Shown here: positions 2,962 to 61,769 of the stretch, in pieces
Position numbering within the stretch: position 1 is the first letter of the stretch
Layout: each line of letters opens with the position of its first letter
Assembly: GCA_030390025.1 (NCBI GenBank)
Contig: CM059431.1
Location: 115,074,001-115,138,000 of the forward strand
Direction of reading: 5' to 3'
Source of the DNA: Squalus acanthias
Taxonomy: Eukaryota
Length of the DNA stretch: 64,000 nucleotides
The notes under the pieces: generated by a model
Told to the model about the DNA's origin: nothing
Database searches by the model: none
What the model saw: the letters and a program-made list of their open reading frames with translations, nothing else
Program-made: the position numbers and the translations under genes

Positions 2962-3326
2962 AGAAAGAAAGAAAGACTTGCATTTATACAGCGCCTTTCA
3001 CGACCACCGGACGTCTCAAAGCGCTTTACAGCCAAGGAAGAACTTTTGGAATGTAGTCACTGTTGTAATGTAGGAAACGCGGAAGCCAGTTTGCGCACAG
3101 CAAGCTCCCACAAACAACAATGTGATAATGACCAGATAATCTGTTTTAGTGATGTTGGTTGAGGGATAAATATTGGCCAGGACACCGGGGATAACTCCCC
3201 TGCTCTTCTTCGAAATAATGCCATGGGATCTTTTACGTCCACCTGAGAGAGCAGACGAGGCCTCGGTTTAACGTCTCATCCGAAAGACGGCACCTCCGAC
3301 AGTGCAGCACTCCCTCAGCACTGCAT
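2962..3326 (-). mobile_element. DeuSINE-type SINE (SacSINE1/AmnSINE1-like), 5'-truncated
   Basis: Minus strand has the Deu-domain-like GGGAGTGCTGCACTGTCGGAGGTGCCGTCTTTCGGATGAGACGTTAAACCGAGG and an L2-like tail ending TATAAATGCAAGTCTTTCTTTC. Confidence 0.8.
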
Positions 3327-11339: not shown

Positions 11340-12101
11340 GCGACAGAAATTAGGCTCGCCACGGGTGAGTACGCACTATGTACTCACCCGTGGACGGAAC
11401 GAAAGTGCCGGTTTCTTGCATACACTGCGCATGCGCGGGAAACCAGCACTTCCATTCCCCTGAAGGAAGGGGTTCAGAGGTCGAACGCGCACGCCGGAGG
11501 GCCAGCGCGTTCGCCTCGCACTTCGTTTTTTTTTACAGGTTCCTCCGTGAGGGTAAGCACGGAGAAGATACACATTGAAAAAGGAGGCGCAAGGCCTTCT
11601 TTTAACAAGGTAAGTGCTGATTTTATTAAAATTTAAACATTTTTTTCACAGATTTATCTTTTTTAATTACTTTAAAGAAAGGTAAGTTTAGTTTTAGCCC
11701 CGTTAAAAAGTGTAATTAATTTTTTCAAAAATTTAAATTTTTGTTTAAAATAGTTAATTAATGTAATTTATAGTTATTTTAAAATGTGATTTAAAAAAAA
11801 TATATTTGTAGTTTTAGGGATGTTTTGGGGCTGATCTGTATTCATAGATTTGACAGGTCTTCCTGTCAAATCTATGAATGAAAGATGGTCTGCTGCCATT
11901 GGCTCTCCATGGCCCACGTGATCCCAGGGGACGCATCGCACTAACTACGCCCCTGGGATACGCAAGCACTGCGCACCGGCAGTTGGAGGAGGCCCAGGAC
12001 CGGAATCCCCCGCGGGCCCAGGGGTCAACGGCAGGCGCGGTAGGTAGGTGCCCGCACAATCCTTGCACCCGCGGGAAGCCAGGGAGCCGAATTTCTGGCC
12101 T
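11340..12101. mobile_element. Harbinger-type MITE, about 760 bp, with GC-rich arms and an AT-rich core (copy 1 of 3)
   Basis: Termini GCGACAGAAATT...AATTTCTGGCCT, flanked by ATT/ATT. Homologous in inverted orientation to 41007-41760 and 52951-53686. Confidence 0.8.
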
Positions 12102-12532
12102 ATTGTATTTTTAGCCATCCTTTGCTAAATAGCCAACAGCATCTAAGCCATGTCTTAGGCAATATTCTGAATTACTTTATTAAGACAGCCAATGGGATCC
12201 TACAGGATACTGAAAGAGGATATGGAATTAACTGCAGTAAGAAAGGACACTTGGTAATAATATTGCTGCAGTCTGGAAAATAAATTTAGCATGAGACTTG
12301 CAGTAATGCAGCTTGTTCTGTCCAATAATACTCTACAACTGTTACACAATCCTTTGCTGCTGCATCCACATTATTAAGATGTCTAATACAACTGAAAGAC
12401 TTGCATGGAGAGCTTGGAGAGGAGATGGGGAGAAATGAGAGAGAGCATGGTTTAAGGCTCGAACTTGGGACCAACGATCGCGACGTCCGCAGCAGACCTT
12501 GATATGGGCTTAACAGGCTCACCACCCGTTGG

Positions 12533-12623
12533 ATGCTCAGGTTCCTTGCCTTTCTGCTATTCGTAGTTCCTCCTATCAATCACGGCCTGATGGCTGTGAC
12601 CGACTACCCTCTCAAGGTACACT
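12533..12623 (+). CDS. Candidate first coding exon encoding a signal-peptide-like N-terminus (MLRFLAFLLFVVPPINHGLMAVTDYPLKVH..)
   Basis: Basic residue followed by a hydrophobic stretch. Donors AAG|GTAC (after 12616) and CACT|GTAAGT (after 12623). Local CpG patch at about 12460-12490, in unique sequence. Confidence 0.35.
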
Positions 12624-15479
12624 GTAAGTCCTGTAACTTTGAACGGAAATCATGGCTGGAACACAACAGAGCAGCGAATTCACGGCACAGAGGAATTCAA
12701 TTTGCACCAAGTCGCTGGTGCAGAGTTTAATTAAATCATGCACGAATTTTCAGCCTAAAAGTAGATTATATATCGTTTATTAGAGACAACCTGGTTTAGA
12801 TTTATTTTAACAAGCAGCTTTCAAGAGAACTGAAGGCATTTTTTGCTAAACAGCGCACCAATTAAAAAGTATCTAATGACTGGGATTTTCGTGCTAACTC
12901 GTGCCGGTTTGTCGGAGTTTTACAAGAAAAGTATTTTTTTTCCCACTAGGATTGGAGATTATTAATATCAACCAATTAGATTGGTTGGATGCTGGGACTG
13001 CAGTCTGTTAGAAGCAATCAATCAGACATCATTTTCTCCAACTGTTGGTTGCACAGGAATTTGAAGCAGAAATGTTTTCAGATAAGAGGGTGGTTTTGAA
13101 AAGTTGCAATGACAGGTGTGTTTATTTAGTGTTTGCCCCAACAGAAGTCATATATAACAAATAAGCTGCTAAAATGCTGCTTTTAAAACTAAACTCATTT
13201 CCTCAGGAATTTCTGGACTATGTTTGACAGTTGTCTTAAGTGAAGGTTTATGTTATAGACTAGTTACAGTTGTTTTTTTAAGGTAAGGAGGATGTTTTAA
13301 CAGAGGAACAGGCGGGTTCATAGTTTGGTATGTTGTTTAAAATAGTTAAATCAGCATACCTTCATTTCAGGTAACTCCACACCTGTCTCTGGGTTGCCAT
13401 GTCATACGGACCAGGGAAAGATGCCATTCTGACCTAGTTTTGTCTGTATTCTCATACAAGCTGCTTGTGGCTTCGTAGATGTATTGTAACAGATTTCAAT
13501 TCACAAATTAACATTATTGGAGGAGGGCAGGATTTCCATGGGGGTTCTCCCACTCACACACCAAAGCTTCGTTGACGCTTTTGTGCTGTTGGTAGATCCA
13601 TCTTGGGATCCAGTGCTCACTATTCACCATCTTGAACAATGGGTAGTGGGTATTCCCGAGTTTGATATTACGGCTTTAGACAGCTCAAGAGTGGATCTCT
13701 GAAGGTATTGAGTAGAAGTTACAAGGGTTATATGATCCAATTGCTAAATCATACTGATACCTGCGGGTCTGGGTAGAAACCAACTTTAGCCTTAACACAA
13801 ACCTTTGAGACTTTGCTCATAAGGGGCTAAGAGTACATTGGTTGTTTCTTTAACTACAGCAAGCTTCCAATGCAGGTTAAGATATGCCCAAACAGTTCTC
13901 CTTCATGGTTCAGAACTCCCAGGCATGCTAAAGTGCTTCCTCTGACCTTTGTGTGAGATCCAGGACCATGCTGTGAGGTGGATTTGCAGCAAAGCGGGGA
14001 AACAGTTGCAAGGAGAGTTCAGATCTACACCAACCTGCAAAGAGCACCCTGGAGGATGAGTTAGCCTCACACAGGCACATCTTTTTGTCCAAACCCCTCA
14101 CATTAGAACCTGAATTACACAGTTTGCGTTGAGTAAGCCTGATGCAAGGCATTGGACTTGAATGTCGAGAACATCAAAGTGACTGGGTTGATATAAACTG
14201 CCCTGTGTAGGTCCTTTCAGAATGCTGAAGGTAAAGGAAGGAACTGCAAGACATGGGATGACAGGAGAGTATATATTGTGATACACAAGTTATCGCAATT
14301 GTGTGAGACAGGCTCGATGGACCAGAGGGTCTTTACCTGTCCATCATTGTTTGTATGCTGAAAGGTTTTAGCTGGAAGCCAGGTATGAGAATACAGACAA
14401 ATCTATCCAGGGTTCAGTGCCTACTTTGATTGGGTTACAGATAGGCAAATTGCTGCTTGAAGCTCCATACCTCCAACTGGTGGAACCAGCTTTCATTGGG
14501 ATATGGTGTATTTATGCTGCAGTTAGGAGGATGGTGACAATGCATACATTTTATGATGAATCCTATTGCTCACCATGAAACCCATAAGGAACTCCTGATA
14601 CTTGCTATCTGTCTAGTGAGGGCTCATACTTGTATTTGCCAGCCTAATGACCAATTATGGACTATCATCCTTAGGAGGAGTTACCACCCCGCTCCCCCCC
14701 CTCAAGATGACGTGCTTTTCAGTGGAAGATTGGAATGAAGTCTGTGAGCCAGCCAGGTCTGGAGTACTCGAGGCACTGTTGATGGTTGACCATCCAGCCT
14801 GGCTCATCATGCTAGGAATCTTCGTACTTGTCTCCAGATAACCATGTTAACCAATGCCTTAATGGGTAGGGTGTCCTGACTAGATAAGTAGTAAGGTAAC
14901 TAGTGCTCTGTGCATGATAGTCTGTACAGCTTCAGGTGATTAAGTTCCAACAGTATCCAAGCACACACTTGAGGGCCCCTAAGCCTTGGTTCTTGTGAAC
15001 TTGTACTTAAGTTGTCTGGACTTGGGTAACTGGGAGTAACGTGTGTTCTTATGGGGCAAACACAGACTGTACCTGTATGGAATTTTCAGTAGCTTGGTTT
15101 GAAAACTCTTAAGCATGGTGATGGATTTCCATGTGTGTCAAAATGCCTTTCCAAAAACAAAAGAAAAATTCTGATATTACATTTTAGAAAATTAGCATAG
15201 TTTTGAGGTTTGGACATTTTTCTGTAATTTAGTCATTAATTATTTATTCTAGCTACCAAATTGAAGTGATCCTGGAGACTGATTTGCTGTTAATTGTAAG
15301 TATGTAAATTTACCAGTGAAATCTCCATTGGTGCTTTTTATTCAGCCTGTCTAGGGCCCTGGGGTTGGGAGCATGCCCTATTCTAGAGGAGGTAGACCCA
15401 GTGCTAGAGAATTGCTTTGCAGTTGCTCTGGAACCAGTGTCGCTTGAGAGAAAATCTGCAGGTCTGAGAAACAGGGCAC

Positions 15480-15845
15480 TAATCCAGAGAGAGGAACCTG
15501 TGGGTACAATCTGACAGAGAGGAGATTAATCCAGGCAGAGGGATGTACAGGTACAGTCTGACAAAGGGCATTACCCCAGACAGAGGAATCTGAAGATACA
15601 GTCTGATAGAGGGCATTAACCCATTCAGAGGAATCTGAAGATACAGTCTGATAGAGGGCATTAACCCATTCAGAGGAATCTGAAGATACAGTCTGATTGA
15701 GGGCATTAACCCATTCTGAGGGATCCTAAGATACAGTCTGATAGAGGGCATTAACCCATTCAGAGGGATCCTAAGATACAGTCTGATAGAGGGCATTAAC
15801 CCAGTCAGGGATCTACAGGTACAGTCTGACAGAGGGCATTAATCC
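15480..15845. repeat. 45-bp minisatellite, about 8 units with degenerate outer copies
   Basis: Unit GAGGGCATTAACCCATTCAGAGGAATCTGAAGATACAGTCTGATA, seen as a 15-aa repeat in ORF 15479..15796. Confidence 0.95.
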
Positions 15846-15862
15846 TCTGTTAATGAAGGGAT

Positions 15863-16073
15863 AAAATTGAGAGGTCGCACAACACCAGGTTATAGTCCAA
15901 CAGTTTTATTTGAAATCACAAGCTTTCGGAGCTATCGATCGCCCCTTCCTCAGGTGAAGGGGCGATCGATAGCTCCGAAAGCTTGTGATTTCAAATAAAA
16001 CTGTTGGACTATAACCTGGTGTTGTGCGACCTCTCAATTTTGTCCACCCCAGTCCAACACCGGCATCTCCGCA
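15863..16073. mobile_element. Penelope-like pLTR insertion forming a perfect 86-bp inverted repeat, with a 14-bp TSD
   Basis: Arms at 15863-15948 and 15956-16041 are exact reverse complements. TAATGAAGGGATAA occurs at 15851-15864 and 16074-16087. Confidence 0.85.
15916..15957 (-). ncRNA. Minimal type I hammerhead ribozyme motif
   Basis: Minus strand reads TCAC-CTGAGGA-A-GGGGC(GATCGATA)GCTCC-GAA-AGCT-T-GTGA: stem I TCAC/GTGA, cores intact, palindromic stem III. Confidence 0.7.
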
Positions 16074-17153
16074 TAATGAAGGGATAAGCAGTTACAGTTG
16101 AAAATGTCAGAAAGTGCATTAATACAAAGGCCCTGAAACCGATGAAGCTGGAAAAGGTGGAAAGTCTGATTTTCAGCTCGTTGGGCCACCAGAAATTTGG
16201 GGCAGAACCCAATAATGCTGGGATTTCGCCTCATATGTACTGGCCCATTTAGTTCTGGTGGGGGGCCACAATGGACCTTCTGCCCACTCCCAACCCCCCA
16301 CCCCCCATGCCATGGGGACGCGGCTGAGGAAATTCTCAGACGTCCCCGGGAACTTCCTCCCAGTCCAGCCGCTGAGAATAGGCATAGGTTCCATTATGGG
16401 TCCAGTGAAGGCCCAAACGTGCAGGAGGGAGCAGGTAATCAGTCCCAGAGATGGCCTTTGGGAGCTGCAGAGTTAAGCCAGACTTTGTCTGGCGAGTTGT
16501 GAAATGTTTTTGTAATGGTCATATCTCATGCAAGTCATGCGATAGCGTGTTTTGTCATGCTTCACTTCATTGCATCGTAGGTTTGTAAACAAGTGAAAAA
16601 AGTCTTCTCAGCATCTTTTCACACATTGTTGTTTTAAAGGCAGTGTCTCTTTTCCAATAATCAATTGTATTTATTAAATCATGTGGTCAGTATAATTATG
16701 CTTAAAAGATAAATTGATCTGACTTAAAAATATGACAGGACTTCACACAGACAACCTTTCAAGAATTGATCAATAGAAAGAGTCCAGGAAAAGGGTACTT
16801 CAACTTTAAAGCAGGGTGTAATTTCTCTAAATGTCCTGGTGATAAATCAGTTAGGATGGAGTCAGATTATTACCCTTTTTATCAGAGTACCCTATGGTGA
16901 GCTATAAAAGAAATGGGTTTAATTATGGCCGTTGAGGCTGGATTGCTGCTATCTGGGTCCGCTTGAATGTAAACAGAACAGCTCTTTCATTCATTAGTGG
17001 GTGTCTGGGAGGAATGTTCTCTTCTTCCTCCTGCACACTTTGCAGGGGGACAGCGCTCAACTGGAGTGAACTTTGAAATTAGAGTAACAATAGCATTCTG
17101 TAGGAACAGCAAGAGGAAGTGGGACAGACGACATCGCCCACTTAACCGCAGGG

Positions 17154-17486
17154 TGAACTTTTGCCCTTGAGTGACCAGTGCTGCTGGAGCTTAGGTCAAA
17201 AGGTGAAAACTGACAACAAAAAAGTGGCTTCTGAATGAAAGAGAAAATGACAGGTTCTTCATTTCTCAACGCTGAGTGGTCATAAACACCCCGATGAAAG
17301 GACTGCTGTGATTGGATGGGGTGATCAATACTGATGTATTGTCCTTTATATGAATGAGGAAATGCACTGGCAATTTTTTTTTTCAGTTGCAAAAAAATAT
17401 AAGCCTTGGATATAGATAAAGGGCCAGTCAGTCGCTGTTGATTTGTATAAAGGTTGAAGAATGACTTTGCTTTGACCTCATGCCCT
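17154..17486. promoter_or_regulatory. Candidate retinoic-acid/nuclear-receptor enhancer with three DR2 elements plus Pbx-Hox and Meis motifs
   Basis: TGAACT-TT-TGCCCT at 17154-17167, AGGTCA-AA-AGGTGA at 17193-17206, TGACCT-CA-TGCCCT at 17473-17486; TGACAG at 17248; TGATNNAT at 17322 and 17332. Confidence 0.55.
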
Positions 17487-18642
17487 CTGGCATCACAGGT
17501 GGTGCATGAACACAATGAGGGCTCGGATGTGACTGCTGCTGTGGGCATTTTACACAGGCAAGATTGTAAATTTGTCTATTTATGAGTGTCCTGCCGTGTT
17601 CCTATCACTCCAGTAGACAAAGGGTGAGCTCTGTGCGAACAAAGCATATCCATAAAGTTTTCTGTTGCTGCTTGTGTTCTTCACGATGCTGCAATAAATG
17701 ACATGGTGTGCCATTTCCTCGATTCGGTATTTTGTCTGAGTTTTTGCAGCGATAGGGTAGGTATGGAAATTTGCACCTGCAGCCAGACATTGTGAGGTTG
17801 TTTAACTGGTGGCATCTCTGGTATGATAAGACAAAAATAATGGACGTTATTGTATATTTGTGTCAGCTTTGGGGGCCTGTGTTCTCTAAAACACAAGAAA
17901 ACAACCAGCTCTAATAAACCTGTCACCCTCTACTCAGACTGTTAACATCCATTCGACATTTCTGTTTGGCCTATTTTGGATTGCTCTAGCACCTGACCAC
18001 CATCATCATCTGAGTCAGATCAAATTGAGTGACAGCTCAGTAATGCGGAGGGTAATAATTACTGGCATTGTGGAGATCCACAAAATGGCGTTACTTTAAA
18101 CTCATTTTACGTTATGTTGATCCAGTTTGACGCTTTCAAAGCTTCATGCTATTCTACCTTGATGTATCAGGACGGGGCTGTTGAATCCTATCATGTCATT
18201 GTCAATGCTGTTTGGCACTGATGGATGCACCCTTTGTGGGGGTGGTAGAATAGGTAGTCCTGTTGACCAATTTGTTCTGCCCCGAACACTCTACCATGGA
18301 GAACGCCCCATGTAGCAGCCTGGCCGAGAAACAGTGAACTGTGCTCATGGAAAGTATCCGTTTTTGAACAAAGGCTTTAGTACACTTATGATACATGAAT
18401 AATTAGAGTGAATACTGTGAGAATGTGGGAATGCTATATTGCGTCAGTCTTGCAGAAGGGAAAATAAACTACAATGAAAACTCTTACTTGAAATTCACAG
18501 AACACAGAGAAAATATGAAACAGGTAAGGTAAGGATTACATGCAGATCATGAAGAATTTTATAATCTTTGTTTCTGATTCATTTGCGTGCACAGCAGCTC
18601 AAAGTTGTCTGTATATTTCCAGTTTCTTCTTTCCTCTCATCA

Positions 18643-18935
18643 CAACAACAACTAGCACCTTTGACACAGTAAAACGCACAAGGTACGTCACAGGAGCGTG
18701 ATCAGACAAAATATGCCAACAAGGCACATAAGGAGATATTAAGAGAGGTGTCCAAAAGCAAAGAGATAAGTTGTAAGGAGTGACTTAAAGGAGGAGAGAG
18801 GTAGAGAAGGAGAGGCTTAGGGAGGGAATTCCCGATCTTAGGGCCTAGGCAGCTGAAAGTACGGCTGGCAATGGTGGAGCGAAGGAAATCGGGGATGCGC
18901 AAGAGGCCAGAATTGGAGGAGCGCAGAGATGTCGG
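18643..18935 (-). mobile_element. L2 LINE 3' fragment
   Basis: RSTIASRTFSCLGPKIGNSLPKPL; similar to 32038-32350. Confidence 0.8.
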
Positions 18936-20810: not shown

Positions 20811-22699
20811 GGCCAGCTGTATCCTCATGGAACTTGGCCCACCTATCTATAAATGATTCAGGAGACTGAAACTGTGCTCTTGATCAACATTTTGTCTTGG
20901 GATGTTGAGAGGAACTGCTCTCAGGGAAAGTGGTTCTGTGCATCACACTCGAACTTCAGTAGGCTGACATTCATTCTTCCATTTTTTTTAGGTTTAGTAA
21001 ATTAGTGGATGCAAATGCAATTGAGGAGGAACTCAATTTAAAACCACATCTCTCATGGTAAAGGTCCTGACTTATTCATTGGGTTTTGTCTAGAGAGAAT
21101 GGTTCACCCACTCCAGCTTAGGCACTGATACACTGCAAAGGTCGCACTGTTTGTTACACTGTTGAAGTAAGTGATGTAACGGTGGCTGTGAGACATGCAT
21201 CAGATATCAACTAGCGTCATTTTGCCAAATGTAAATATGGGTTTAATGTACTTGAGTAAGTTTCCAATCAGATTCCCACTCAATGCAAATAGATCATAAG
21301 GTAAGAACACTTCAGTATCATCATATTTTTGGTTATAACTTGAAATCACGATGAGTATGTGACGATAATTACAGACAACTGCACAGAACATGGTTCTAAA
21401 CATTGTCATTCGGCTCTGCCTATCCTTCTGAAGTAAACCAAAAGCAGCTTACTGCATTATGTTGTACGAGGAAACCTATAGGAGATATTGGCTGTTCTGT
21501 CTTCATTCAAGAAATGATGAATCATTCAGATAATGAGTCAACAAGAAAAATATAATTAATGACTAATGATTCAGAAGTGTTCATCCCTAAAAATTAATTA
21601 TCTCACAACCTATCTGTCTTATCTAAACAAAATGAACTACGTTATTTAATGTTCGAAACTAGTAGCAGTGATTTTCTCGGAATTACTGTAGCTTTAAGAG
21701 AATGTGTTTTGTTCTACGCATTAATTTACAGCACAGCACAGTATAAAGATAGGAGCTAAATGCCTTCGCACAATGCTTTTAGGGCAGGTGACCTTGACTC
21801 GTGCTCACATTAATCCTGGTGTGTTACTCACTTAAATTCATTATTGCGTAACCAGTTCAATTTGCAGGTGAGCTGTCATTTGGCCCACTGTGTTTTTCTT
21901 TGGCCACCCTTGCCCTTTCACTGCTCTGATCCACTGACCTTGTCCCATCTGTCATTTGGCACAGGTGGCAACTCGAGGCTTATAGTGACCCAGCGGGTCA
22001 GCTACAGAATTCCTATCCACACCAGCCAAGTGCCCTATCCTGTTTATACAATGTCCTCCCTGGAGGCCAAATGAACAGTAAAGAGAGAAAATGGTCTGGT
22101 GAACAAAGGCCATCAGGCCTTTTATACAGGGAGGTCATCATTTCTTATGTAAGGAAAAGTTCTCGTTACCATGACTGCCAGAAACACAAAGAGAAAATAA
22201 AGGCGGCTGTAAGGAACTTTACAAAGTAATTTGCACAAGTGAAACAGTCTACAGGAACTCATTGCATGAGTACCTATATAGTATTTCAATTAAAAGGCTG
22301 ACCCGGTAAGCTTCTAAGCATGTGCTTTATACTTTTTGATAAGGTTGTTTTAAGGTTCCAGCAACATGCTAGTGATATTGTTGTGTTGCCAACATGCTCA
22401 GGTTTTCAATACCTTGTTTTCCGTTCATTTCAACGAAAAATATACCAGTTTAAAAGAGTATCGTTAAAACACTCTAGATCTTTGCTGAAGTGACTCTGGA
22501 ATGTTTCTGGTGCAAACAAAAGCCAAACTAACATGACTGGTGCCCAACAGCTGCTGCAGTAATAATGAACAGGACCTTCTCAGGTGCATTGCACTTGTTA
22601 ATGTGATGATGTCAATAGCACGCTCTGAGCACATTCCAGGGTCATTCAGACAACAAGAATCAGCTTATGTTATCAAAACTACCTTATTTAGATCCCAAT

Positions 22700-26696: not shown

Positions 26697-28937
26697 GGCC
26701 TAGAAATTTGTGGCCGCCACGAAAGTTGCCGGGTTAACGCCCGCCAAAAATGGTTTTGGCGGTAGGAGAAAAATTCATGCTGGGAACTTAAGATTTTTAG
26801 CCCAGCGCTAACTCACCATGTAATGCCTTCCCGTCCAGGAGCAGCGTTCCATCTTCCAACAGCCTCTGGTAGCGAGGCCATAGAGTTCGCGGGACATTGT
26901 GGGACATTAAAAGGGCAATGCATTAAAAGGGCAATGCATTAAAGTGCAATGCCTTCTGAACTGATAAAAATAAAAATGAAGTAAAAAAAAATGCAGCTTT
27001 CAGCGTTTACTGCCTTTTTAAAAAAAAACATTAAAAAGAAGTCCCAAATAGGAGTCTTCAACTCTTAAAGCTGAATTCCCTTCTGCATCTCAAAAAATGG
27101 GAAAAGTGCTTCAGCACTAACACAAATGGCTCAGCAAGCCAGGGAAGCGGCACCCTGGATCTCGCACACAGCACTCCAGCTTTGTGCAGGGGGTCAACAC
27201 TGCAGGAGAGGTCCTCTACCCACAGGGGCCAGGAGGCCCTCCAGAAAGAACGATGTGGGACCACATCACCGAGTCATCACTGTCACCAGTGTCGCCCCCA
27301 CCACCTGGCTCCAGTGCCCAAAGAAGCTTCATGACCTCAGACCAGTGGTCAAGCTCAGTGAATGCATCTTCAAAAGTCGTCTCCTACCAACTGCACCACT
27401 AGCCTCGCACACCTCTCAGTGCACGACTTCCACCTGCCGCCCCCCCCCCCCCCCGCCCACCCCTGGTCAATCACCCACCTACCAACAATCTTTGCCATAC
27501 ACGACGCACTTCTTCCATTCCTAGCCTCATCTCATCCCCTTGGAGGTGATGGTGCAGGCCATTCTTGGCAGGAGCATGGCTGAGCCCTTGGCCAGCAGTG
27601 GGGCAGAAAGGATACAATATGCTGGTATCCTCATACGTTATCCTCCTTCTGGCATGCACCTCATGTTTTCCCACCCTCCCCTCACGACAACTCCACCCTT
27701 GTGCCTTCTCATTTCACACACCCAAGAAATGCAGCCCTCCCAGCCAGTGGTTGACCAAGAAGAGGGAGAGGAGAGTGACGAAGAAGAAGAAACACTGTCA
27801 CTCGATTGCACACTCCCAGTCACCAGCTCCTCGAGGTCATCTGCAGAGTCCCCCACGGAAAGTCAGCAGCCTTCCACCAGCCATGCTGCAGCCACTGGGG
27901 TGGCACTGCGTGACATCAGTAGAATCGGCAAAGGCACACACAAGACAGTCACTAAGAGAATGCATAACAGTGATGAGTTGATTTCTTGATGTCATATTGG
28001 ATGGATAAAGTTGGATTGGAAAGTTTGCTTTTATTTCAGCATCATAGCCAAGAGGACGCTGTGATGGTCAGTAACAGAGGGAAGGTAAGGTGTGGGACAA
28101 ACACTGAAAGGGGAGTTGGGGTTGTGGACACTGGGACTGCAGGCGGATGATTCCATCCCGGATATCCAGGCCAGAAAGGGGCTGTCTGAGTTGCATCCTT
28201 CCTTCTGCTTCCTCCTCTTCGGCTTATTCCTCTTTGGCTTCCTCCTCTTCAGCTTCTTCCTCTTCTGTTTCTTCCTCTTCTGCATCTACCACTTCCCTCT
28301 GCAAGTGAATGCTGTAAGTCTGAAATGACAGCATAAAATGCTAGAAATACTCAGCAAGTCAGGCAGCATCTCGACCTGAGACATGAACTCTGTTTCTCGC
28401 ACCACGAATGTTGCCTGACCTGCTGAGTATTTCCAGCATTTTCTGTCTTCTCAGAGGCCTTCCTTTACCATCCGAGGTCTTGCAAATATCCAGCAGCACT
28501 CCCTACACACTTACAAAACTTTTAACATGTATTGCAGGAAGTCACTAGTTCAATAAAATAAAAAAAAACACAGTCCAAAAGCTTAAATGCAAACTTACCT
28601 GAACTATGTGTGTGTCCCTTTAAGAGGTGCTGACAGCACCTCTGTGCGTCTGCTTGCACGCTGGGTTTACCGGGTGTGCTTAGGACCCAGTGCTGAACTC
28701 AGTGCTAGGGTAGAATTTCGCCATGGTGACGTTCAGTCGCTGTTGTTCGCCGACTTGACGTCACCACTTGACCATTTTTCTTTGCAGGGTGATGCTTCTT
28801 AACGGCAACGCTACTGGACCTACAAAAATCGAGGATGCCACGGGACCCGCCACCCGCTGGCGAAAGAGCGGCGGCTGCCCTCTTCTCGCCATTTTTTTCC
28901 CGTAACGGGTGGTGTTAAGCCCCTGAATTTTTAGCCC
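26697..28937 (+). mobile_element. Internally deleted Harbinger element with a Myb/SANT-like gene remnant (+) and a transposase acidic-tail remnant (-)
   Basis: TIRs GGCCTAGAAATT...AATTTTTAGCCC. TTWLQCPKKLHDL Myb-like motif at about 27300-27340. GAA/GAG-rich acidic tract on the minus strand at 28200-28285. Confidence 0.75.
28330..28447. mobile_element. Penelope-like inverted-repeat remnant inserted in the Harbinger element
   Basis: AAAATGCTAGAAATACTCAGCAAGTCAGGCAGCAT...TGCCTGACCTGCTGAGTATTTCCAGCATTTT. Confidence 0.7.
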
Positions 28938-35363: not shown

Positions 35364-35592
35364 TGACATGAATCTTGTCATTCATGTGGAAATGACTTAT
35401 GAAATAATACTGGGCGGCCTGCTGGTGGCGCTGTCCAGGGAGAGTATAAATACTCGGGCACGGGCCCTGCTTGCTCAGGACATTCTTGAACAGGAACTAG
35501 TGAAGGACACAACTAGACCTCCATGTTGAAAAACAGTTGATTAAAGCTTTGTTTAACGCTTAGACCAAGTGCCTAGTAGTTTTCATACGTCA
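35364..35592 (+). mobile_element. Solo LTR, 229 bp (copy A)
   Basis: TGAC...GTCA ends; flanks CACCT/CACTT; TATAAA at 35445; ATTAAA at 35540. Near-identical inverted copy at 58797-59025. Confidence 0.85.
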
Positions 35593-36340
35593 CACTTTGC
35601 TTCACATTTATGGTGTTTAGAAGATTCCTATTCTCAACTTCTACGGAGACCTACATCCTAATTCTCTGGCAGGCCGAGAGTAAGCAGTTTCTTCACTCTA
35701 TTTACATTTTAATATATTCACAAGGACAGTCCCAACAATATATATATATAAATATTTTTAATACTTAAGAACAATTCTGTTAATGTCAGGCTTGGGGGAG
35801 CAGATTAGATGTGACAATTGGCCTCAATATCGCTGAGCGAAGGAGAGTAAAATCATCCAGTGTTCCCACTACTGATCCCGATCCAATAACTCCAGCTGGA
35901 ATTTATGCTTCTGTGAATGTAACACAGAAAAAGCCATTCTGACTAAAGGAATGTCATTTTTTTGTTAAGTTATATGGATTTTGTTTTCTTCCTTTCTTAT
36001 AGCTACCTATCACATGAACATTTCTGAATCTGAGAAATCAGAGACCACTTGCTCCAACAAGTTTGTCCACAACACTCTAAATGCCACAAGAAGGTGTAAA
36101 CGAGTGGTCCGGAGATTCTCTGATTCCATTCATGAGTTTGAATCCACATCCTACCAATCCAGGATAGGGTGTACTTTCACCATGTGGTGAACCATGTGTT
36201 TGAATGAACATCTTACTCCCCATCACATTGCACATTGGAGCACCAATACACAATATTACCTACTATCCATAATAACTTACTGTATTTTGAAGTTGGTTCG
36301 GAGGCACAGCCTAGAGCACTTTGTTGAAAATACACAAATT

Positions 36341-37897
36341 TGGATCCAGTGCAGGAAGTGGTTCAATGACCTAAGCAGGGCAGAAAAGGTGAGAGCAGTG
36401 GCACATTCACCTACATCCTGATGTAGGTATCACCCCACCCCCCTTTACTCTGCCTTCTCAAGCCCTCACACCAACTTACCTTGCAGTTGCACCCATCCCT
36501 CTCTGTCTATGTACTTCCTCACATCCCCCATCTGTCCATCCACCACTGATATTCACTGATATGCAATGTCATGCTTCTCCCTCATAGTCACCCTCAAGAA
36601 ATGATCTCCATCCATCGGGTAAACATATGCCGTTACTCTTACTCATAGGTCTCTTCTTTCCCTCCTTGCAGGAGCACAGAACACCAGGGAGAGGCAGAGA
36701 ACCAGAGGTGGCGCTCCAGCCATCTTGAACTAACAGCTGCAGAAGAGGAGGCACTGGAGATCAGCAGCGTCTTGGCATGCCTGGCCGCCGGAGATGGGGA
36801 GATAGCGGCCTCCCAGCTACCTGGCGACAGAATTAAATATCAGACAGCCACATGTCATACAACACTGAGTCATGTTGACTTGATGTCTTCAGCGAGTGAA
36901 ATATGTGCATGTTCATAATGATAAGTTCAAACATTCTTACCTTGACAGTTCTCATTCATGTCTTTTATCTCCCACATGGCCCGCATGCATCCAGCAGGAG
37001 TTGGTCAAGGTCGCCGCTGCCAACAACTCCTATGAGGAGCTCAATCCCTCTGAGGTTGCACCGTCACAGGACTCATGCAGACCATGCACCAGCTCAGATA
37101 CTCGCGCTTCGTGGAACCAGTTACAGAGACATTTGGGTTTTCACCTGGTGACTTGCACTTCACAAGTGAGCAAGGGACAGCAGTGGAGAGTCTGCGTCGG
37201 AGGTTGCAGGCCTCTCCAAGCTCTGCTCGGCTGTATCCCAGGGGGCTGTCGACGAAGAGGATAATCATTGAGCAGCAGCAGAGAATGTGCGATGCACTGA
37301 CAGGTGTTCAAGGCACATTGTCCACGATGGCAGACAGGTTGGACGAGTCCACCTCAAGCATGAGTGGGATGCTGTCGCCGACCATTGCGATGATGTGTTC
37401 TTCCATTGATAGAGTGGCCAACTGCATGGAGCATCAAACGCGGGAATCACACGAGTGCATGCCGGCCTTCAACAAGGGCTTGCTCACTCTGGATGCCACC
37501 TTAACTAGGATGAATGATACCCTAGCCTTGGCCTTTCGGTGCCTCACTGATCTCTAGCACAGTGGTAGCAGGGAAGTGCGGCTGAGCCATGAAAGGAATG
37601 ATGGCGAAAAGGGACATGGAAGTGGGTCTCCGCTCAAAGCTCACCTGTTGCCCCACACCCCCTCAGTCAGTAGCCCACATGCTGCCTCGTGTCCTGATGG
37701 CTGAGTCTGCCCCTGCACTGGTGCAGGTGGAGCAGTCTTTGGCGGGGCTCTCACGGGCTCGAAATCCCAGAGGACGTAGGCCAAGAGCATCTCAGCAGTC
37801 AGAGCAGGGATGTGAGCAGCCTGCCTCAACATCTGCTCAAGCCACAGGGGTTGCACTATGTAGAAACAATAGGAAAAGGAAGAGTAAAGATTTGTAG
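36341..37897 (+). pseudogene. Harbinger Myb/SANT-like accessory gene, spliced, decayed
   Basis: Exon remnants at about 36341-36388, 36672-36823 (LTAAEEEALEISS) and 36990-37897 (coiled-coil-like QQQRMCDAL, basic C-terminus RKRKSKDL). Confidence 0.7.
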
Positions 37898-38221
37898 TTG
37901 CACAAGGTTATGTACATGGGTGTGTTACAAATTTTGTACTGTTAAGTGTCGTTTCTTCATTTGATGCACATAAATGTTATTGTTTTGCACCACTTTCCCG
38001 TGTTGCCCACTATTGGTTGCTGGTTGGCAAGTGGCCTCTCAGTTGTTTGATAATGAATGGGAAGACATGAATTGACTGTGACTAATGGGGGGATGCGAAA
38101 GCGATGCTTGGTTGTTTGCAGGACTGCTTTGTGTTAGTGGCATGGGTGGGGGAGGGCAAAAGTGGTTTTTGCATGAGGTTGTGAGATGGGTGCACTGGTG
38201 GAACCTAAACGAACCTCGCAA

Positions 38222-39400
38222 TAATTAGAGTATCCCGGGCATTGCGGGTAGCATTGAGTGCCATCCATCACCTTCCGCCTCCTCGTCTTCCTCCTCTTCT
38301 TTGTCTTCCTCCTCCTCCTCCTCTGAATCCTCTGAAGAGGCTCTGTGCTCTGCGCTTTGGCCCTCTTGCAGGTCCAAGCCTTGCTGCTGGGCAATGTTGT
38401 GCAGGGCACAGCACACCACGACCATTCTGGACACCCAGGCTGGTGCATACTGAAGGGCGGTCCAGATCTGTCCAGGCCCCTGAAGCACATCTCCATCATG
38501 CCGATGACTAGTTCGATGACACATCTGGCGGTGATATGGCATTCATTGTAGCGCTCCTAGGCTTCATTCCTCGGGTTTCTGAGAGGTGTCATCAGTAGCG
38601 TTTTAAGTGGGTATCTCTTGTCACCGAGCAGCCAGCCGGTAACTCTGCTTCCAGGTGTGAAAACATCTGGGAGGATGGACTGCCACAGGACGAAAGCATG
38701 ATGGGAATCTTCCGCACACCTGCATAAAGATCTTTTTGTGGTTGCACACCAGCTGCACATTGATGGAGCAGAAGCCCTTCTGATTGACAAACACGCCTGG
38801 GTAATCTATGGGTGCCTTAATTGCCAAATGCGTTCAGTTGATGACACCCTGCACCTGTGGGAAGCCAGCCAGAGCCACAAATCTGAGCTCCTGCTCATTC
38901 TGACTGGCGTCATCGCAGGCAAAGTTGACATAATTGGCGGCCCTGGCAAACAAGCTGTCTTAGGCAATTGTGGGCCGCCGACTGGGAGATCCTGCAACTG
39001 TTTCCGGCAGAGCCCTGCAAGGATCCAGAGGCAAAACAGTTGAGGGCAGTGGTGACTTTGACAGCCACTGGTAAAGCGTGGCCACCAGGTCCAGCTGGCA
39101 GAAGGTCTTGTTCCAGAAGGCTGCAAATGCCTGCCACCACCTGACGCGACACCCTGAGCCTCCTGAGACACTGGTGTTCGGACAGATCGAGGAAGCTTAT
39201 CCTCTGCCTGTAGACCCTGTGTGCCGGGTATGGCCTCCTGTGAGCTGCACCTCTCTGCTGCTTCCCTCTCTCCTGTGGAGCTAGAGGTCTCTGAGCAGCA
39301 GGCTGCTGCTATTGCTGTGGCTGGTGTGTTGCTGGTGCTGTTGCTGGTCATCTTGGTCCTCATCTGACGTCCAGTCTAAGGCAGCATAAACGGCACCCAT
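38222..39400 (-). pseudogene. Harbinger (HARBI1-like) DDE transposase pseudogene
   Basis: [54 protein letters not shown]; acidic tail EDSEEEEEE; multiple frameshifts. Confidence 0.9.
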
Positions 39401-40602
39401 GCTGATCTGATAGATCAGAGCTCCAAAGTGCAGATCAGACCTCTGCCGAACTTCCAAAGTGTAGATGACACCTCCAAAATTTTGAAAACACCTCCAAAGT
39501 GTGTAAAGTAACCTCTCAGCACAAATACTGTGAACAAACCCGTTCCCACAAGCAGGTAAGAAAGCAGCTGTGAGTACTGAGTATTTATTGCCATATTTCC
39601 GTGAGATTGCTTCAACCCTCCTCAATTGCCATTTTCTTCTCGCCTTGCTTTCACTGGCGAGTTCCAGGAAGCCCGGGAAACTTGTGGACCCAAAGTTAAA
39701 CTTAAAAAGCCATGTCAATATCGCTCTAATTGAGCAACTAACGTATGCTAAGTGGCAACCCACCTCTCCCGAGAGGGTTCTGCACACGCAGCCTGACACA
39801 CTGCAGTGAAACCCGGAAGCCGGCGGGTTGGAGCCGGCTTCCCGACACGCTGTCAATTTCGGCGGTTTTAACCCCCCACCTGCTCCCAAACCCACACGCT
39901 CCTGCACATTAAAATCCGCCCCTATGGTTTAGAAAAATAATCATTTTGTTTTTTCTCTCGAGGTACTGAAAAGCCTGCATTGTCCAAACCCACCCACATA
40001 ATTACTTCTACTCTTGGTATCAAAGACCAACGGCGTGTTCATGGAATTTTAATGATTTCTATTCTCAAAGATTTATCAGTTTGTCCAGGTGGTCTGAACG
40101 CCACATGTTTGAAGCCGAGAGCTACAATTTGCAAATCTTGCGATTTGAAAATAAACAACTCATGGGTTTCTGTGATGTTGGTGCTTGGCTGTCCTGAAAA
40201 GCAGATCTACGTTCCAGTTCGAACAATAGCTGAAGCTGCTTGAGTTGCAATCAGAACATTGAGACTTGACGTGTCAGAAATTTTCCATGCAGGGGTCTAA
40301 AGGAAACCTGAAGCAAGAAATTATAATGCAGCTGTGACCTTAACCTGTAGTGGGAGTGATGGTCTCCAAACACACTTTAGCTCATTGCTGACATCCAGTA
40401 CTCGATGCTTGTTTTGCCTGCATCTCCTGGTGATCTCGGTATCATACTGGTAAGAGTAGGTCACCTGAAACCTGGCCATCCTTTTGGTTTGTCTGTTTTT
40501 TTCTAGTGAGTGTTTACTGAACATGTTGAAAATGCACACATACAAATTTGATAACTCTAAAATCTGTTCGTGTACAAAAAGTCCCAGTATTTCTTTTACA
40601 AA

Positions 40603-43559: not shown

Positions 43560-43920
43560 GCAAGTGGTGGTCCCATTGAATAGTTCATTAGTCACTTATT
43601 TGGTACATCTGTGGGCAGCTAATTGGCTGATATTGAAAATGATCTCATGCTATCCTGGACAGAGGTGCAGGTATAAGAAATGAGGGAGCAGGTGACCTTG
43701 ACTGCTACAAGCAGTGTCATCCCTGGGGTGCAGGTTGTCTGAAGGTGTCCTTGCAGCAGATGGCACAGGCCTGCAAATGCCTCTGCAAATTCCAAGTCAG
43801 CACAGAGACTGTTACATAGCTGTCATGGCCAGGGCCTGCAGATATGGTTGGTAGCATAATGGCAGGTGTGAACAGCCCAGCTCTAGTGCCAGCTCATCCC
43901 CTTGGCATGCCTTCTTTGAT
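43560..43920 (-). mobile_element. Harbinger transposase N-terminal remnant
   Basis: Minus frame LCHLLQGHLQ...LLVAVKVTCSL resembles 39000-39150. Confidence 0.5.
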
Positions 43921-45973: not shown

Positions 45974-48900
45974 AGAATCATAGAAATTTACAGCACAGAA
46001 GAAGGCCATTTGGCCCATCGTGTTTGTGCCAGCCGAAAAAGAACTATCCAGCCTAATCCCACTTTCCAGCTCTTGGTCCGTAGCCCTGTAGGTTACGACA
46101 CTTCAGGTGCATATCCAAGTACTTTCTAATTGTGATGAGGGTTTCTGCCTCTACCACCTTTTCAGGCAGTGCGTTCCAGACCCCCACCACCCTCTGGGTG
46201 AAAAAAGTTCTCCTCAACTCCCCCCTAATCCTTTTACCAATTACTTTAAATCTATGACCCCTGGTTATTGACCTCTCTGCTAAGGGAAATAGGTCCTTCC
46301 TATCCACTCTATCTAGGCCCCTCATAATTTTATACACCTCAATTAAGTCTACCCTCAGCCTCCTCTGTTTCAAAGAAAACAACCCCAGCCTATCCAATCT
46401 TTCCTCATAGCTAAAATTCTCCAGTCCTCGTAAATCTCCTCTGTACCCTCTCTAGTGCAATCACATCTTTCCTGTAATGTGGTGACCAGAACTGTACGCA
46501 GTACTCGAGCTGCGGCCTAACTAGTATTTTATATAGTTCTAGCATAACCTCCCTGCTCTTACATTCTATGTGTCGGCTAATAATGGGAAGTATTCTGTAT
46601 GCCTTCTTAACCACCTTATCTTCCTGTCCTGCTACCTTCATGCACTCCATGCACTCCAAGGTCCCTCTGTTCCTCTACACTTCTCAGTATCCTGTCATTT
46701 ATTGTGTATTCCTTTGCCTTGTTAGCCCTCCCCAAATGCATTACCTCACACTTCTCCAGATTGAATTCCATTTGCCACTTTTCTGCCCACCTGACCAGTC
46801 TATTGATATCTTCCTGCAGGCTACAGCTATCTTCCTCACTATCAACCACATGGTCAATTTTTGTATCATCTGCAAAAAGCAAGGGACCTAGTACTGAGCC
46901 CTGTGGAACTCCACTGGAGACAGCCTTCCAGTCACATAAACATCCGTTGACCATTACCCTTTGCTTCCTGCCTTGAGCTAATTTTGGATCCAACTTGCCA
47001 GTTTCCCTTGGATCCCATGGGCTTTTACTTTTCTGAGCAGTCTGCCATGTGGGACCTTATCAAAAGCTTTGCTAAAATCCATGTAGATTACATCAAATGC
47101 ACTACCCTCATTGGCCCTCCTTGTTACCTCCTCAAAAAATTCAATCAAGTTAGTCAGACATGACCTTCCCTTAACAAATCCATGCTGACTGTTCTTGATT
47201 AATCCTTGCCTTTCTAAATGACAATTAATACTGTCCCTCAGAATTTTTTCCAATAATTTGCCCACCACCGAGGTTAGGCTGACTGGCCTATAATTACTCG
47301 GTCTATCCCTTTCTCCCTTTTTAAACAACGGTACAACATTAGCAGTCCTGCAGTCCTCCGGCACCACGCTTGTAGCCAGAGAGGATTGGAAAATGATGGT
47401 CAGAGCCTCTGCTATTTCCTCCCTTGCTTCTCTTAACAGCCTGGGATACATTTCATCCGGGCCTGGCGATTTATCTACTTTCAAAGATGTTAAACCCCTT
47501 AATATTTCCTGTCTCACTATGTTTATCTCATCTAATATTTCATACTCTTCCTCCTTAACTATAATGTCTTCATTGTCCCTCTCTTTTGGGAAGACAGACA
47601 CATAGGGCTGGTTTTACTCACCAAGATGCGTTGGGGGCGGGACTGCTGCCTTCCGGGTTCTAGTCCCGCTCCCAGCGACATCCGATGCACAGACGCTATT
47701 TTCCCCTGATTGGCCTTGTTAAGCCCACCTTGCGGGCTTGCTGGCCAATTAAGGGAAAGCCAGTGTCAGATGACGTCAGTTGATGACGCTTCATCTGCTG
47801 GTTTTCTTAAAGGCACATGAAGCATAAATTTTTGACAGATAATTTGACAGTGTTTGACAGCATTGAGGTGCTGTCAAACACTGACAATCACTGTACACAG
47901 GTGAGCCCTTGCACCCAGGCTCTCCAGTGACACTCTCCTTAGGATGAAACAGATGGCAGCTGCGGGTGAGGGTACAGAAGCGATCTGTCACTGGTGAGAG
48001 AGGTTCTCCCAATGAGGTGAGGCCACACAAACACTTCAAAGCTTGTCACCTACAGAAAAATCTAAATACATTAAAAATGACTTTCCCAACTTTTTCTTAC
48101 CTCTGACTCACCAGTGTCCCATTGCATCCTTCACACCATTTCTGCAGCTGTCATCTATACACCAAAATAACAACAGACCCACAACTCGCCTCACTTACCC
48201 TGGCGGGGTTTCCCGACGTCGGGATGCCCGCAACAGAAATCTAAAAATTGGAAAAAGCCTCTTAACTGCCTGTTAACTACCTGTTAACAGGCAGTTAAGT
48301 GGCTATAATCCTCTTCCCGCCGCTAGGAGTCGGGTCCCTGCGCAAATCGGGGACCCGACTCCCGGGAAGATTGTATGGAGGCGGGTTGAGAGCGGGTTTG
48401 GGACCCGCTCCCATTCTTTTTGAATTTCCCAGCAGTCCCGCCCCCAAACCCGCCTCCTCAGGGCTGGTAAAATCCAACCCATAGTATTCATTAAGAACCA
48501 TACCCATGTCTTCCGCCTCCATACACAGGTTACCTTTTTGGTCTCTAATAGGCCCTACTCTTTCCTTAGTTATCCTCTTGCTCTTTATGTATTTAAATAA
48601 CATCTTTGGGTTTTCCTTGATTTTACTTGCCAATATTTTTTCATGCTCTCTCTTTGTTTTCCTAATTTCCTTTTTAGTTTCACCCCTGCACTTTCTATAC
48701 TCCTCGAGGCTTTCTGCATTATTTAGCTCTCGGTATCTGACATAAGCTTCCCTTTTTTGCCTTATCCTACCCTGTATGCCCCTTAACATCCAGGGGGCTT
48801 TAGATTTGGGAGTCCCACCCTTTTTCTTTGTGGGAACATATTTGTTCTGAACCCTCCGGATCTCCTCCTTGAATGCCTCCCACTGCTCTGACACTGATTT

Positions 48901-50138
48901 ACCTTCAAGTAGCTGTTTCCAGTCCACTTTTGCTAAATCACATATCAGCTTAGTAAAATTGGCCTTACCCCAATTGAAAACTTTTACTCCTGGTCTATCT
49001 TTGCCTTTTCCATAACTACGCTAAATCTAACTGAATAATGCTCACTACCACCAAAATGCTCTTCCACTGATACCCCTTCTACCTGCCCAGCTTCATTCCC
49101 TAAAACTAAGTCCAGAATCGCCCCCTCTCTTGTTGGGCTTGCTACATACTGGCTAAAAAAGTTCTCCTGACTGCATTTTAAGAATTCTGTACCCTCTATA
49201 CCTTTTACACTGATTTTATTCCAGTTAATATTAGGGTAGTTCAATCCCCTACTATTACAGCCCAATTGTTTTTGCACTTCTCAGAAATTTGCCGACATAT
49301 TTGCTCTTCTATCTCCCTCTGACTATTTGGGGGTCTATAGTACACTCCTAGCAGTGTGATTGCTCCTTTTTCAACCCATATGGCCTCATTTGATGATCCT
49401 TCTATCATATCACCCTTCCTTATTGTTTCTTTAGCCAATATTTCAACCTCACCCTCCTTTTTTATACCCTCTCTATCTCGTCTGAAAACCCTGTAACCAG
49501 AGATGTTGAGCTGCCATTCCTGCCCTTCTTTCAGCCATGTTTCAGTAATAGCTATAATATCATACTTCCACGGGTCTATCTGTGATCTAAGCTCATCTGC
49601 CTTATTCACTAGACTCCTTGAATTGGAGTATATACCATTAAGCATTTCCAAACCCCTTTGCTGTCTATTTCCTAGCTCTTGTTTCCTCTGCCTTCCAAAC
49701 TCACTTACTCATTTTCTGCCTTCCATTTCCAGCTTGCTTCTCTCCCTTTTGAATCTACGCTCAGGATCCTATCCCCCTGTCAAGTTAGTTTAAACCCTCC
49801 CCAACAGCACTAGCAAACCCCGCTGCAAGGATAGTGGTCCCGGCCCTGTTGAGGTGCAACCCATCTGGCTTGTACAGGTCCCACCTCCCCCAGAACCTGT
49901 CGCAATGCCTCAGGAATCTAAAGCCCGCCCTCCTGCACCATCTCTCCAGCCACGCATTCATCTGCTCTATCCTCCTATTTCTGTACTCACTAGCTCGTGG
50001 CACCGGGAGTAATCCAGAGATTACTACCTTTGAGGTCCTGCTAATTAATCTCTTTCCTAGCTCCCTAAAATCTGCCTGCAGGACCTCATCCCTCTTTCTA
50101 CCTATGTCATACCGCTATGGACCACAACCTCTGGCTGT
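45974..50138 (-). mobile_element. Near full-length CR1 LINE: ORF1 C-terminal esterase remnant, ORF2 (AP endonuclease and RT) and 3' UTR, disrupted
   Basis: ORF1 LYKPDGLHLN (SGNH-like). Endonuclease [57 protein letters not shown]. Confidence 0.95.
47605..48480. mobile_element. Harbinger-derived non-autonomous element inside CR1 ORF2
   Basis: GGGCTGGTTTTAC...GTAAAATCCAACCC termini with an ATA/ATA duplication. The CR1 frame resumes on both sides. Confidence 0.85.
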
Positions 50139-52089
50139 TCTGTGCTGAGTTAGCTGATCTCGGCCAAGTTAGCAGGAGGGGTACTATAATTGGTCTTAGA
50201 GTCCCCTGGGTTATGGAGAGTAAAGATGTATTCAGTTCCTGTTTCTGATTGCTCGCCAGTGACCCCTGCTGGAAGATCCATGCATGTGGGCATCAACTGA
50301 GGACAGGATTGGGCTTGGCATGGTAGGGTAGTCTGCCAGCACTTACCGTCTATGTTCACGTATGAATAATGGACATTTGGATGAGGTACTGAAGGCCTGT
50401 CAGCACCTGCAGAGCATTGTGGAACTTTGCCCAGCAAAAATCAGCACCTTTGGGAGAGGAGGGGGGAAAAATGGAAACAAATTACAGTTCTCAAAGAGAT
50501 GAGAGAAGAACTGCTAGATATTTCTTGTCTAAAGACAAGTTATGCATGAACATTGTAACTATTGATGTGCTTGATAAGTATTTTGAAGTATAGTGTACAT
50601 CAGGTGAAAGGAAACAATCCAGTTAGATCTGGTGATTGTTAAGCTTCTGGATGTCTCAATGTGACGTCTTGCATACTGTAAACCTGCTAAGCTGTATATA
50701 CCCACCTTAGCATTGGTGATGAAAGAACTTGCATTACTTTTGATTAGATTAGTTCAAAATCTCTACGAGTGATGAGCAGTACTTTTACGTCAGCTGTATA
50801 AATTGCATACAGCTTCTGTATGTGCTATGTGTATTAATGTGGACCCTTAATGAAGTGCGCACTACAGTTATGCGCATTGTGAGGGACTAGAGCTGCAAAA
50901 GTTTCCCTAACTTCTGATACATTTCTGCAAAAATTGTTTGAGGTAGGTACCTACCCATGCTGCTAACACTTTAAAGATTGCCACACTGATTCAGACATCA
51001 AACTGCAAATAGCTGCAATAACGATGTGATAGACTAAAGTGATCTGTAAAGGGGTTTGTGTTCACAGCAACTGACAAAGATTGGATTGTTTTCTCCTGTC
51101 CATTCACATTAACAATGCACCATTCTGTACCTCATAAGCACCTAATATATTCCAACTCTTTGGCCTGACCTGTAATCCCCTCTATGCCCATTTGACCCAT
51201 CTGTGTTTCATTTCCCACTCATCAAAATCCAAGATATGGGCCAGACCCTGTTTGCAACCATTAGACAGAGCTTGGCACTGTTCCCTCTTCCTGCACCACA
51301 TCCTCTGGCAAAAAAATGACCATCAGATGAGAGAACAGTGCCTGCATTGTCGACGACCAAGATCTGGAAGCACTTTCAATCATTTGCACTCTATACCCAC
51401 TCAAACGTATTAATGCGATCAACATCGAGACTGTTGTGGGCATTCTCTGCAAATAGCTTGCTAACATTCCAGGCATGTACTTCCCAAAACAAGACCAAGT
51501 CTGGGTGTTGAATGCTTCATTGGAAAATAACCAAAAGTTTAAAGCTTAGCTTGGCGCTTGTGGTGTTGATTCTTAATAAGTGACTTCCTAAAAGCACAGG
51601 CTGGGGCTTTGCAACTTAATGACTTGCTTGAAAATATTTTCTAGGTAGCTCATACCGCTTTATTTCCTGTGTTATGTGTCACGTCATGGGTAACATTCAC
51701 TGAATCCACCCTGTTTGAGTACACTGGCAGTTTTTTTTCCAAGGCTGTTAGTTTAAACAGTAAAAAATGTTCTGACCCAAGCTGAGCTCATAGATTTCCG
51801 CACTGATGCAGCCTCTGTTTTACTCATAAAACAGGAAAACGTGACGACTGGAGATTACCTTTGGTGAACTGCTTGCCCCTATTCTGCGTATTTTCTGTCG
51901 TCACAGTCTGCCTTGTGAAGCAAATGTTAATGTTTAGAGCAAATGGCGAAGATTTGATTCACAACTCAAAACAATGGCCCAGAAGTTCGATCGCGCAGCA
52001 CCCGTTTTTCGAGTGCAATACAGATGGCTAGCGATCCAATATGGCTGGTGGAGTGTGCGCGCCCATCTGACGGCAGAAGGGCGCTGCCT

Positions 52090-54363: not shown

Positions 54364-54399
54364 CCTGTAGTGAACCAGGTGTGTGTCGGAAGTAAGAAA

Positions 54400-55438: not shown

Positions 55439-55522
55439 TAACTTTTTAAAGGTCAACATTCTAACACTATTATTAATATGTAATGTGTTTCTGTAAGCTT
55501 ATGACGAATTCAATACTACATA

Positions 55523-61690: not shown

Positions 61691-61769
61691 CATTTGAAAC
61701 AAGATGGAATTTTTTTGGGCCAATGGCTATCCCATAAACTAGCTTCAGTCTGCATAGCGCCCAGCCCAT

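Follow-up and report, generated by a model that had tools for sequence, protein, structure and literature searches.

The DNA analyzed here, a stretch of 64 kb that is referred to as the window, is vertebrate-type DNA with a GC content of 40–52% and zero N. A self-comparison revealed that 16,365 window bases have a match elsewhere in the window, and the long open reading frames (ORFs) are mostly broken reverse-transcriptase or transposase frames. A broken two-gene DNA transposon, presumably of the Harbinger type, occupies approximately 36300–39900, with nuclease-like frames on the minus strand (38134–39375) and partner frames on the plus strand, and fragments related to it lie near 27000–28000, 40300, and 54900. 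Two opposite-orientation copies of a 229-bp element are found at 35364–35592 and 58797–59025, with 23 kb between them, and a tandem array of a 45-bp unit (15473–15842, 8.2 copies) is followed immediately by a 187-bp near-perfect palindrome (15859–16045, 96%). The 64-kb window yielded no known target gene of retinoic acid (RA), no Hox gene, and no other gene known from the hindbrain.

An earlier note on this DNA had suggested that the region of interest possibly lies in intron 1 of a gene that may start at 12533, where the following feature was recognized:

12533..12623, plus strand: possible first coding exon and candidate target, hydrophobic at its start, 30 codons long, and followed by a GTAAGT donor at 12624

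The surrounding region (12180–12960) is promoter-like, with CCAAT words, raised CpG, and the candidate 30-codon exon with its donor, and a 20-codon upstream ORF with a strong start context begins at 12504. The CpG o/e was 0.71 in 12500–12999 versus 0.11–0.28 in 13000–15999, and was likewise high in 11500–12499, which is partly repeat. No homologue of the predicted peptide was found among proteins of 115–2000 aa or 35–114 aa, the query for this search including residues 31–40 from beyond the putative donor, and no match was found in PDB. Two phmmer matches (E ~5e-4), to a repetitive ORF and to what we take to be a fibronectin-repeat protein, were rejected, as were the Atlas matches, which were to DUF378 only and below 0.9. 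The query of 30 residues is signal-peptide-like and weak, and blank searches with it do not show absence of a gene. Splice-site scans recognized no downstream exon, and no host exon was recognizable by eye in 1–46100 and 54300–64000, the interval 46100–54300 being viewed as ORFs only. One run guessed to be RNA (X19) gave a single unspliced contig of 268 nt (17499–17766, depth 3), which lies outside the motifs and has no bearing on expression; none of the listed runs matching the region is on record as RNA. These searches did not confirm the proposed host gene, for which neither a homologue nor a downstream exon was found, although the raised CpG and the GTAAGT donor fit a first exon. The exon at 12533–12623 is plausible as a putative one.

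A motif scan, in which direct repeats (DRs) were scored by mismatch count to the RGKTCA consensus, was carried out over the window and revealed the following features downstream of this exon:

17057..17486, no strand assigned: core nuclear-receptor direct-repeat cluster, a single-copy candidate enhancer (motif scan, self-match, simulation)
17057–17072, minus strand: DR4, overlapping the DR1 and beginning at its exact half-site (motif scan)
17067–17079, minus strand: DR1 ATTTCA-A-AGTTCA, one mismatch (motif scan)
17154–17167, minus strand: DR2 no. 1 AGGGCA-AA-AGTTCA, one mismatch (motif scan)
17168..17175, plus strand: TGAGTGAC, a weak, partial motif resembling the Pbx-Prep decamer
17172–17177, minus strand: extra one-mismatch half-site, 4 nt upstream of DR2 no. 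1 on the same strand
17193–17206, plus strand: DR2 no. 2 AGGTCA-AA-AGGTGA, one mismatch (motif scan)
17248..17253, plus strand: TGACAG, Meis-type, at chance level
17322..17339, plus strand: two copies of TGATNNAT, Pbx-Hox-type, starting at 17322 and 17332, marginal
17462..17486, minus strand: composite three-half-site element, in which DR2 no. 3 and the DR5 have a common perfect central AGGTCA
17462–17478, minus strand: DR5 AGGTCA-AAGCA-AAGTCA, one mismatch (motif scan)
17473–17486, minus strand: DR2 no. 3 AGGGCA-TG-AGGTCA, one mismatch (motif scan)

Approximately 420 bp of single-copy non-coding DNA therefore hold three DR2s, one DR5, and one DR1. The coordinates and strands of the DR2s, the DR5, TGACAG, and the TGATNNAT pair given in the earlier note were all exact; the DR1, which contains what we take to be an HNF4-type CAAAGTTCA core, and the overlapping DR4 had been overlooked. 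Perfect RGKTCA repeats are absent from the cluster, and every direct repeat in it carries exactly one mismatch, so that five elements (17067–17486) have the form of a RARE, namely a DR1, DR2, or DR5 of RGKTCA with at most one mismatch. The interval 17057–17486 accounts for 6 of the 34 one-mismatch DR0–5 elements of the window.

The single-copy nature of the block was further examined by several searches. No self-match of 16046–18652 was detected within the 64-kb window, nhmmer gave zero matches of 16900–17700 to the rest of the window, and blastn of the same query against the rest of the window gave short matches only (best E=0.04, 21 nt). Nothing in the window reached the Rfam gathering score, the eight Rfam matches in 16045–18650 were all at chance level, and no tRNA gene was found at the block. 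The core was found on one long contig per related organism in all three organisms compared (80% likeness), and none of the DR2s lies inside a multicopy repeat. The block thus has no recognizable repeats, as the earlier note had claimed, and with no self-match and one contig per related organism it is not the multicopy repeat that the note had named as a way to be wrong.

The number of DR2s in the window is ordinary (6 versus 5.05 expected; at least 6 in 36 of 100 shuffles), and it is their clustering that is the unusual feature. In 4000 Markov-3 simulated 64-kb windows, three DR2s within 335 bp occurred in 12, four DR2/DR5 within 335 bp in 2, five DR1/2/5 within 420 bp in 1, and three repeats of any single spacer from DR0 to DR5 within 335 bp in 65, these clustering criteria having been chosen post hoc, after the cluster was seen, with a significance that is window-level and not genome-wide. 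A smaller simulation yielded three DR2s in 2/400 and 0/400 windows. When the unique block of 2.6 kb was shuffled by dinucleotides, at least three DR2s arose in 4/1500 cases and at least five DR1/2/5 in 1/1500; the local excess of DR2s over a shuffled background that the earlier note had suggested looking for is therefore present when repeats are scored by mismatch count. All four exact half-sites in the block have a DR1/2/5 partner, compared with 17 of 145 across the whole window (Fisher p=1.3e-4). At 0.3% per window, approximately 150–200 triple-DR2 clusters would be expected by chance in a genome of 3–4 Gb, the size that we assume for the host, and some tens of the fuller pattern.

To examine conservation, the presence of 66 sampled 31-mer words of 16950–17600 was scored in 22 listed sequencing runs. 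Part of this region was present in 20 of the 22, which come from eight studies and six organisms (A–F), and the share of words found was 0.83 and 0.80 in A, 0.53 in B and C, 0.27 in D, and 0.15 in E and F. Alignment to 16500–18000 was performed for four of the 22 runs, with D, E, and F covered and B and C left out. D gave one contig across all of 16500–18000, with 55 other letters and 6 gap letters. E gave one contig over 16500–17820 (119 other letters, 32 gap letters) and F one over 16500–17907 (140 other letters, 31 gap letters), each followed by unlike sequence. An orthologue of the region is accordingly present in all three organisms compared.

None of the differences (40 of 182) and gaps (12 of 29) that were listed falls in a direct repeat; these form a non-random sample with the core rows of E and F outside it, and the 40 differences comprise 32 in 16531–16707 and 8 others common with D. 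The flank 16500–16707 differs in E at 32 or more of its 208 positions (15.4%), the remainder of the contig at no more than 87 of 1113 (7.8%; Fisher p=0.0013), and in F the numbers are 31 of 208 versus 109 of 1200 (p=0.012), the comparison flank being single and AT-rich (GC 0.32). E and F, the most distant of the organisms compared, hardly differ from one another, with 120 overlapping difference rows inferred, and therefore count as one observation. E keeps 10 of the 66 words versus 2.9 expected under an even spread (P=0.025), which fits a divergence of approximately 6% in 16950–17600; the excess is only P=0.087 after setting aside the known flank changes, and the simulation behind these word counts assumes 5, 6, and 10 gap events. 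D, the nearer organism, kept 18 words versus 18.4 expected, indicating no local constraint. Inside the 430-bp core, D shares three differences with E or F (17130, 17383, and 17454), approximately the number of an even spread. The less diverged part may be delimited as follows:

16708..17820, no strand assigned: stretch containing the part with lower divergence in E and F (for E, no more than 7.8% versus at least 15.4% in the flank), limits approximate

These data suggest, at best, moderate constraint over a region of approximately 1 kb; a divergence of approximately 6% among such close relatives is not what a deeply conserved element would be expected to show. The earlier proposal of a conserved RA-responsive enhancer is partly supported: the improbable cluster, its single-copy nature, the orthologue in D, E, and F, and some sign of a divergence below that of one flank stand on the supporting side, and the lack of constraint in D on the other. 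A metagenome scan for the paired-DR2 pattern returned two near-identical bacterial-looking loci, which have no similarity to the window and were rejected. In both loci (L001 and L002), two ORFs flank inverted arrays of short direct repeats at approximately 2980–3080; these arrays are probably iteron-like sites of a mobile element that match the DR2 pattern by chance.

The earlier note had also pointed to Pbx-Hox and Meis motifs in the cluster as typical of RA-responsive hindbrain enhancers. Hox hindbrain enhancers of the Hoxb1 autoregulatory type carry Pbx-Hox and Meis/Prep sites, and the cluster resembles them in its TGATNNAT and TGACAG words. It differs from them in that the number of these motifs is near chance and that neither Hox genes nor other known hindbrain genes were recognized in the 64 kb. 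In 5000 local shuffles, P was 0.047 for two TGATNNAT and 0.29 for one TGACAG, and among 1272 overlapping 430-bp stretches of the real sequence, 32 contained the same combination of accessory motifs. The Pbx-Hox/Meis sites thus add little and barely exceed chance, and neither a Pbx/Meis/Hox contribution nor hindbrain specificity is supported by the present data. In zebrafish, RAR-dominated and Hox/Meis/Pbx-dominated sites are described as separate groups whose motifs often co-occur (PMC11040003).

The single-copy, non-coding cluster is probably an ordinary hormone-responsive enhancer. On DR2 and DR5 elements, RXR occupies the 5' and RAR the 3' half-site; unliganded RAR:RXR dimers hold co-repressors, which retinoic acid swaps for co-activators. 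From this biology of RAR, dimers would be predicted to occupy each DR2 and DR5 of the cluster in this orientation, to hold co-repressors there without ligand, and to exchange them for co-activators in the presence of retinoic acid. Several sites together might then form a cooperative RA-dependent enhancer, the nearest candidate target of which would be the putative first exon at 12533, 4.5 kb upstream. We give about an even chance that the cluster is a cis-regulatory module read by RAR:RXR heterodimers. DR0, DR1, DR2, and DR5 are reported to be enriched at RAR/RXR ChIP sites, in regions that are often multi-motif with partly overlapping motifs (PMC4446430), and none of the 24 highly conserved mouse RAREs departs from the consensus by more than one mismatch (PMC7259794). 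Since the cluster has spacings of the RAR/RXR type (PMC4446430) and stays within the one-mismatch bar (PMC7259794), its reading as an RAR:RXR enhancer is favored, with about half of our confidence placed on it.

Several other explanations were weighed against this reading. The cluster might be a chance assembly of one-mismatch repeats, with no nuclear-receptor function, in intronic or intergenic DNA that is neutral or under no more than general constraint, as would fit the ordinary DR2 count across the window, the recurrence of three repeats of some single spacer in 65 of the 4000 simulated windows in a scan that spans very many windows, and the lack of visible constraint in D. We regard this as unlikely, yet of appreciable weight. 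Against it, the fuller patterns are rarer (2/4000 for four DR2/DR5 and 1/4000 for five DR1/2/5), all four exact half-sites are paired versus 17 of 145 window-wide, and the divergence of E and F is below that of the left flank. One motif could also have been multiplied by an ancient duplication within the locus or by a transposon that has since decayed, in the way that Alu elements multiply DR2 in primates: 90% of human consensus DR2s are located in Alu repeats (PMC1785376), the window is rich in repeats, and 17048–17103 aligns to 17129–17189 with a score of 30 compared with 16 in shuffles. This similarity is not special because it is equalled at ten loci, corresponding to 1.9% of 1542 unique starts, and the internal duplication was rejected. 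Among the repeat pairs listed, none joins two DR2s. The cluster is single-copy, each organism compared having just one long contig over it (80% likeness), and matches neither repeats of the window nor tRNA or Rfam families; an Alu-type origin of its DR2s (PMC1785376) therefore does not apply. A young or abundant repeat origin is largely refuted, and repeat origin of any kind is extremely unlikely.

The cluster could alternatively be a real enhancer read mainly by other nuclear receptors, such as COUP-TF/NR2F, TR2/TR4, HNF4, PPAR:RXR, or other RXR partners, and might then be ligand-independent, tuned to another ligand, or shared by several receptors at the same sites. The HNF4-type core in the DR1 at 17067 and the DR4-type overlaps are consistent with this. 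In 16950–17600, on the other hand, consensus patterns gave no match to the A/T-rich 5' extension before RGGTCA that marks ROR or Rev-erb sites (RORE, RevDR2), to an ERR/SF1 site, or to an NBRE, and the combination of DR2 with DR5 is described as the classical RAR pairing (PMC11040003). Type II receptors are reported to be promiscuous, binding direct repeats of every spacing as well as half-sites (PMC6555819), and Rev-erb likewise prefers a DR2 spacing, COUP-TF a DR1 (PMC10345098). Spacing thus does not fix the receptor (PMC6555819, PMC10345098), and for that reason a role mainly for other receptors, while quite unlikely, was given weight alongside the RAR:RXR reading.

A second nuclear-receptor cluster (21781–22000), which has no self-match and contains five exact RGKTCA half-sites, lies 4.3 kb downstream of the core cluster, and half-sites are denser there than anywhere else in the 64 kb. 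It includes a DR0 (21789–21800) containing a perfect TCAAGGTCA, which we take to be an ERR/SF1-type motif, a three-half-site DR0+DR2 element (21927–21946), TGACAG in two near-identical contexts (21873 and 21949), and a C/EBP-type palindrome (21844). By eye, a 16-nt word in which an E-box overlaps an ERR/SF1-type site was seen twice, at 21784–21799 and approximately 43690–43705. Elsewhere, a three-half-site element on the minus strand (2509–2534) combines a DR3 and a one-mismatch DR5 around a common perfect AGGTCA. No homologue of the putative first-exon peptide at 12533 was found in three protein collections. It is conceivable, and in our estimation very unlikely, that a DR2-dominated RA enhancer born in cartilaginous fish, together with the 21781–22000 cluster, places a lineage-restricted secreted-protein gene (12533) under RA control as a shark-specific branch of RA signalling.

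The cluster, if real, would be another case of the common class of RARE enhancers and indicates no new mechanism. One more RARE candidate is not surprising, because vertebrate genomes hold thousands of RAREs. As a candidate RA-responsive enhancer of a cartilaginous fish it would be of modest importance, and of greater importance if the putative controlled gene proved lineage-specific. Among the papers matching shark or cartilaginous-fish RAREs, none describes a shark RARE or concerns this locus, as judged by titles and abstract starts. The three DR2 14-mers were found, on either strand, in none of the literature full texts searched, a collection with most subscription papers outside its scope, and they are absent from four supplementary files of PMC7259794.

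Among known systems, the conserved non-coding RAR sites of zebrafish (skap1 intron 4, meis1/2, and nrip1; PMC8608873) resemble the cluster in being intronic or distal RAREs, and were found by motif and conservation. Twenty-four zebrafish RAR sites are alignable from fish to mouse (PMC8608873), whereas the cluster was compared among near relatives and shows at best moderate constraint. The RAR/RXR-bound regions of F9 cells also contain several direct repeats with a shared central half-site (PMC4446430), and Cyp26A1, whose control by multiple RAREs is cited in PMC10879103, likewise has several direct repeats in one region. The cluster differs from these in that DR2 predominates and that one half-site belongs to both a DR2 and a DR5; the two spacings "seem to be excluding" at the RAR sites of zebrafish (PMC11040003). 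The mouse RAREs compiled by Berenguer et al. 2020 (PMC7259794, Table 2), examples of which are the Tshz1, Sox2, and Pbx1 DR2s and the Dhrs3 DR5 pair, have the same half-site consensus, spacings, and one-mismatch bar as the elements described here. Tshz1 and Dhrs3 have several or overlapping elements, as does the cluster; the Dhrs3 DR5 uses the AGGGCA half-site that is also found in the cluster, and the two half-sites of the conserved Tshz1 DR2 are identical to the AGGTCA and AGGTGA of DR2 no. 2 (PMC7259794).
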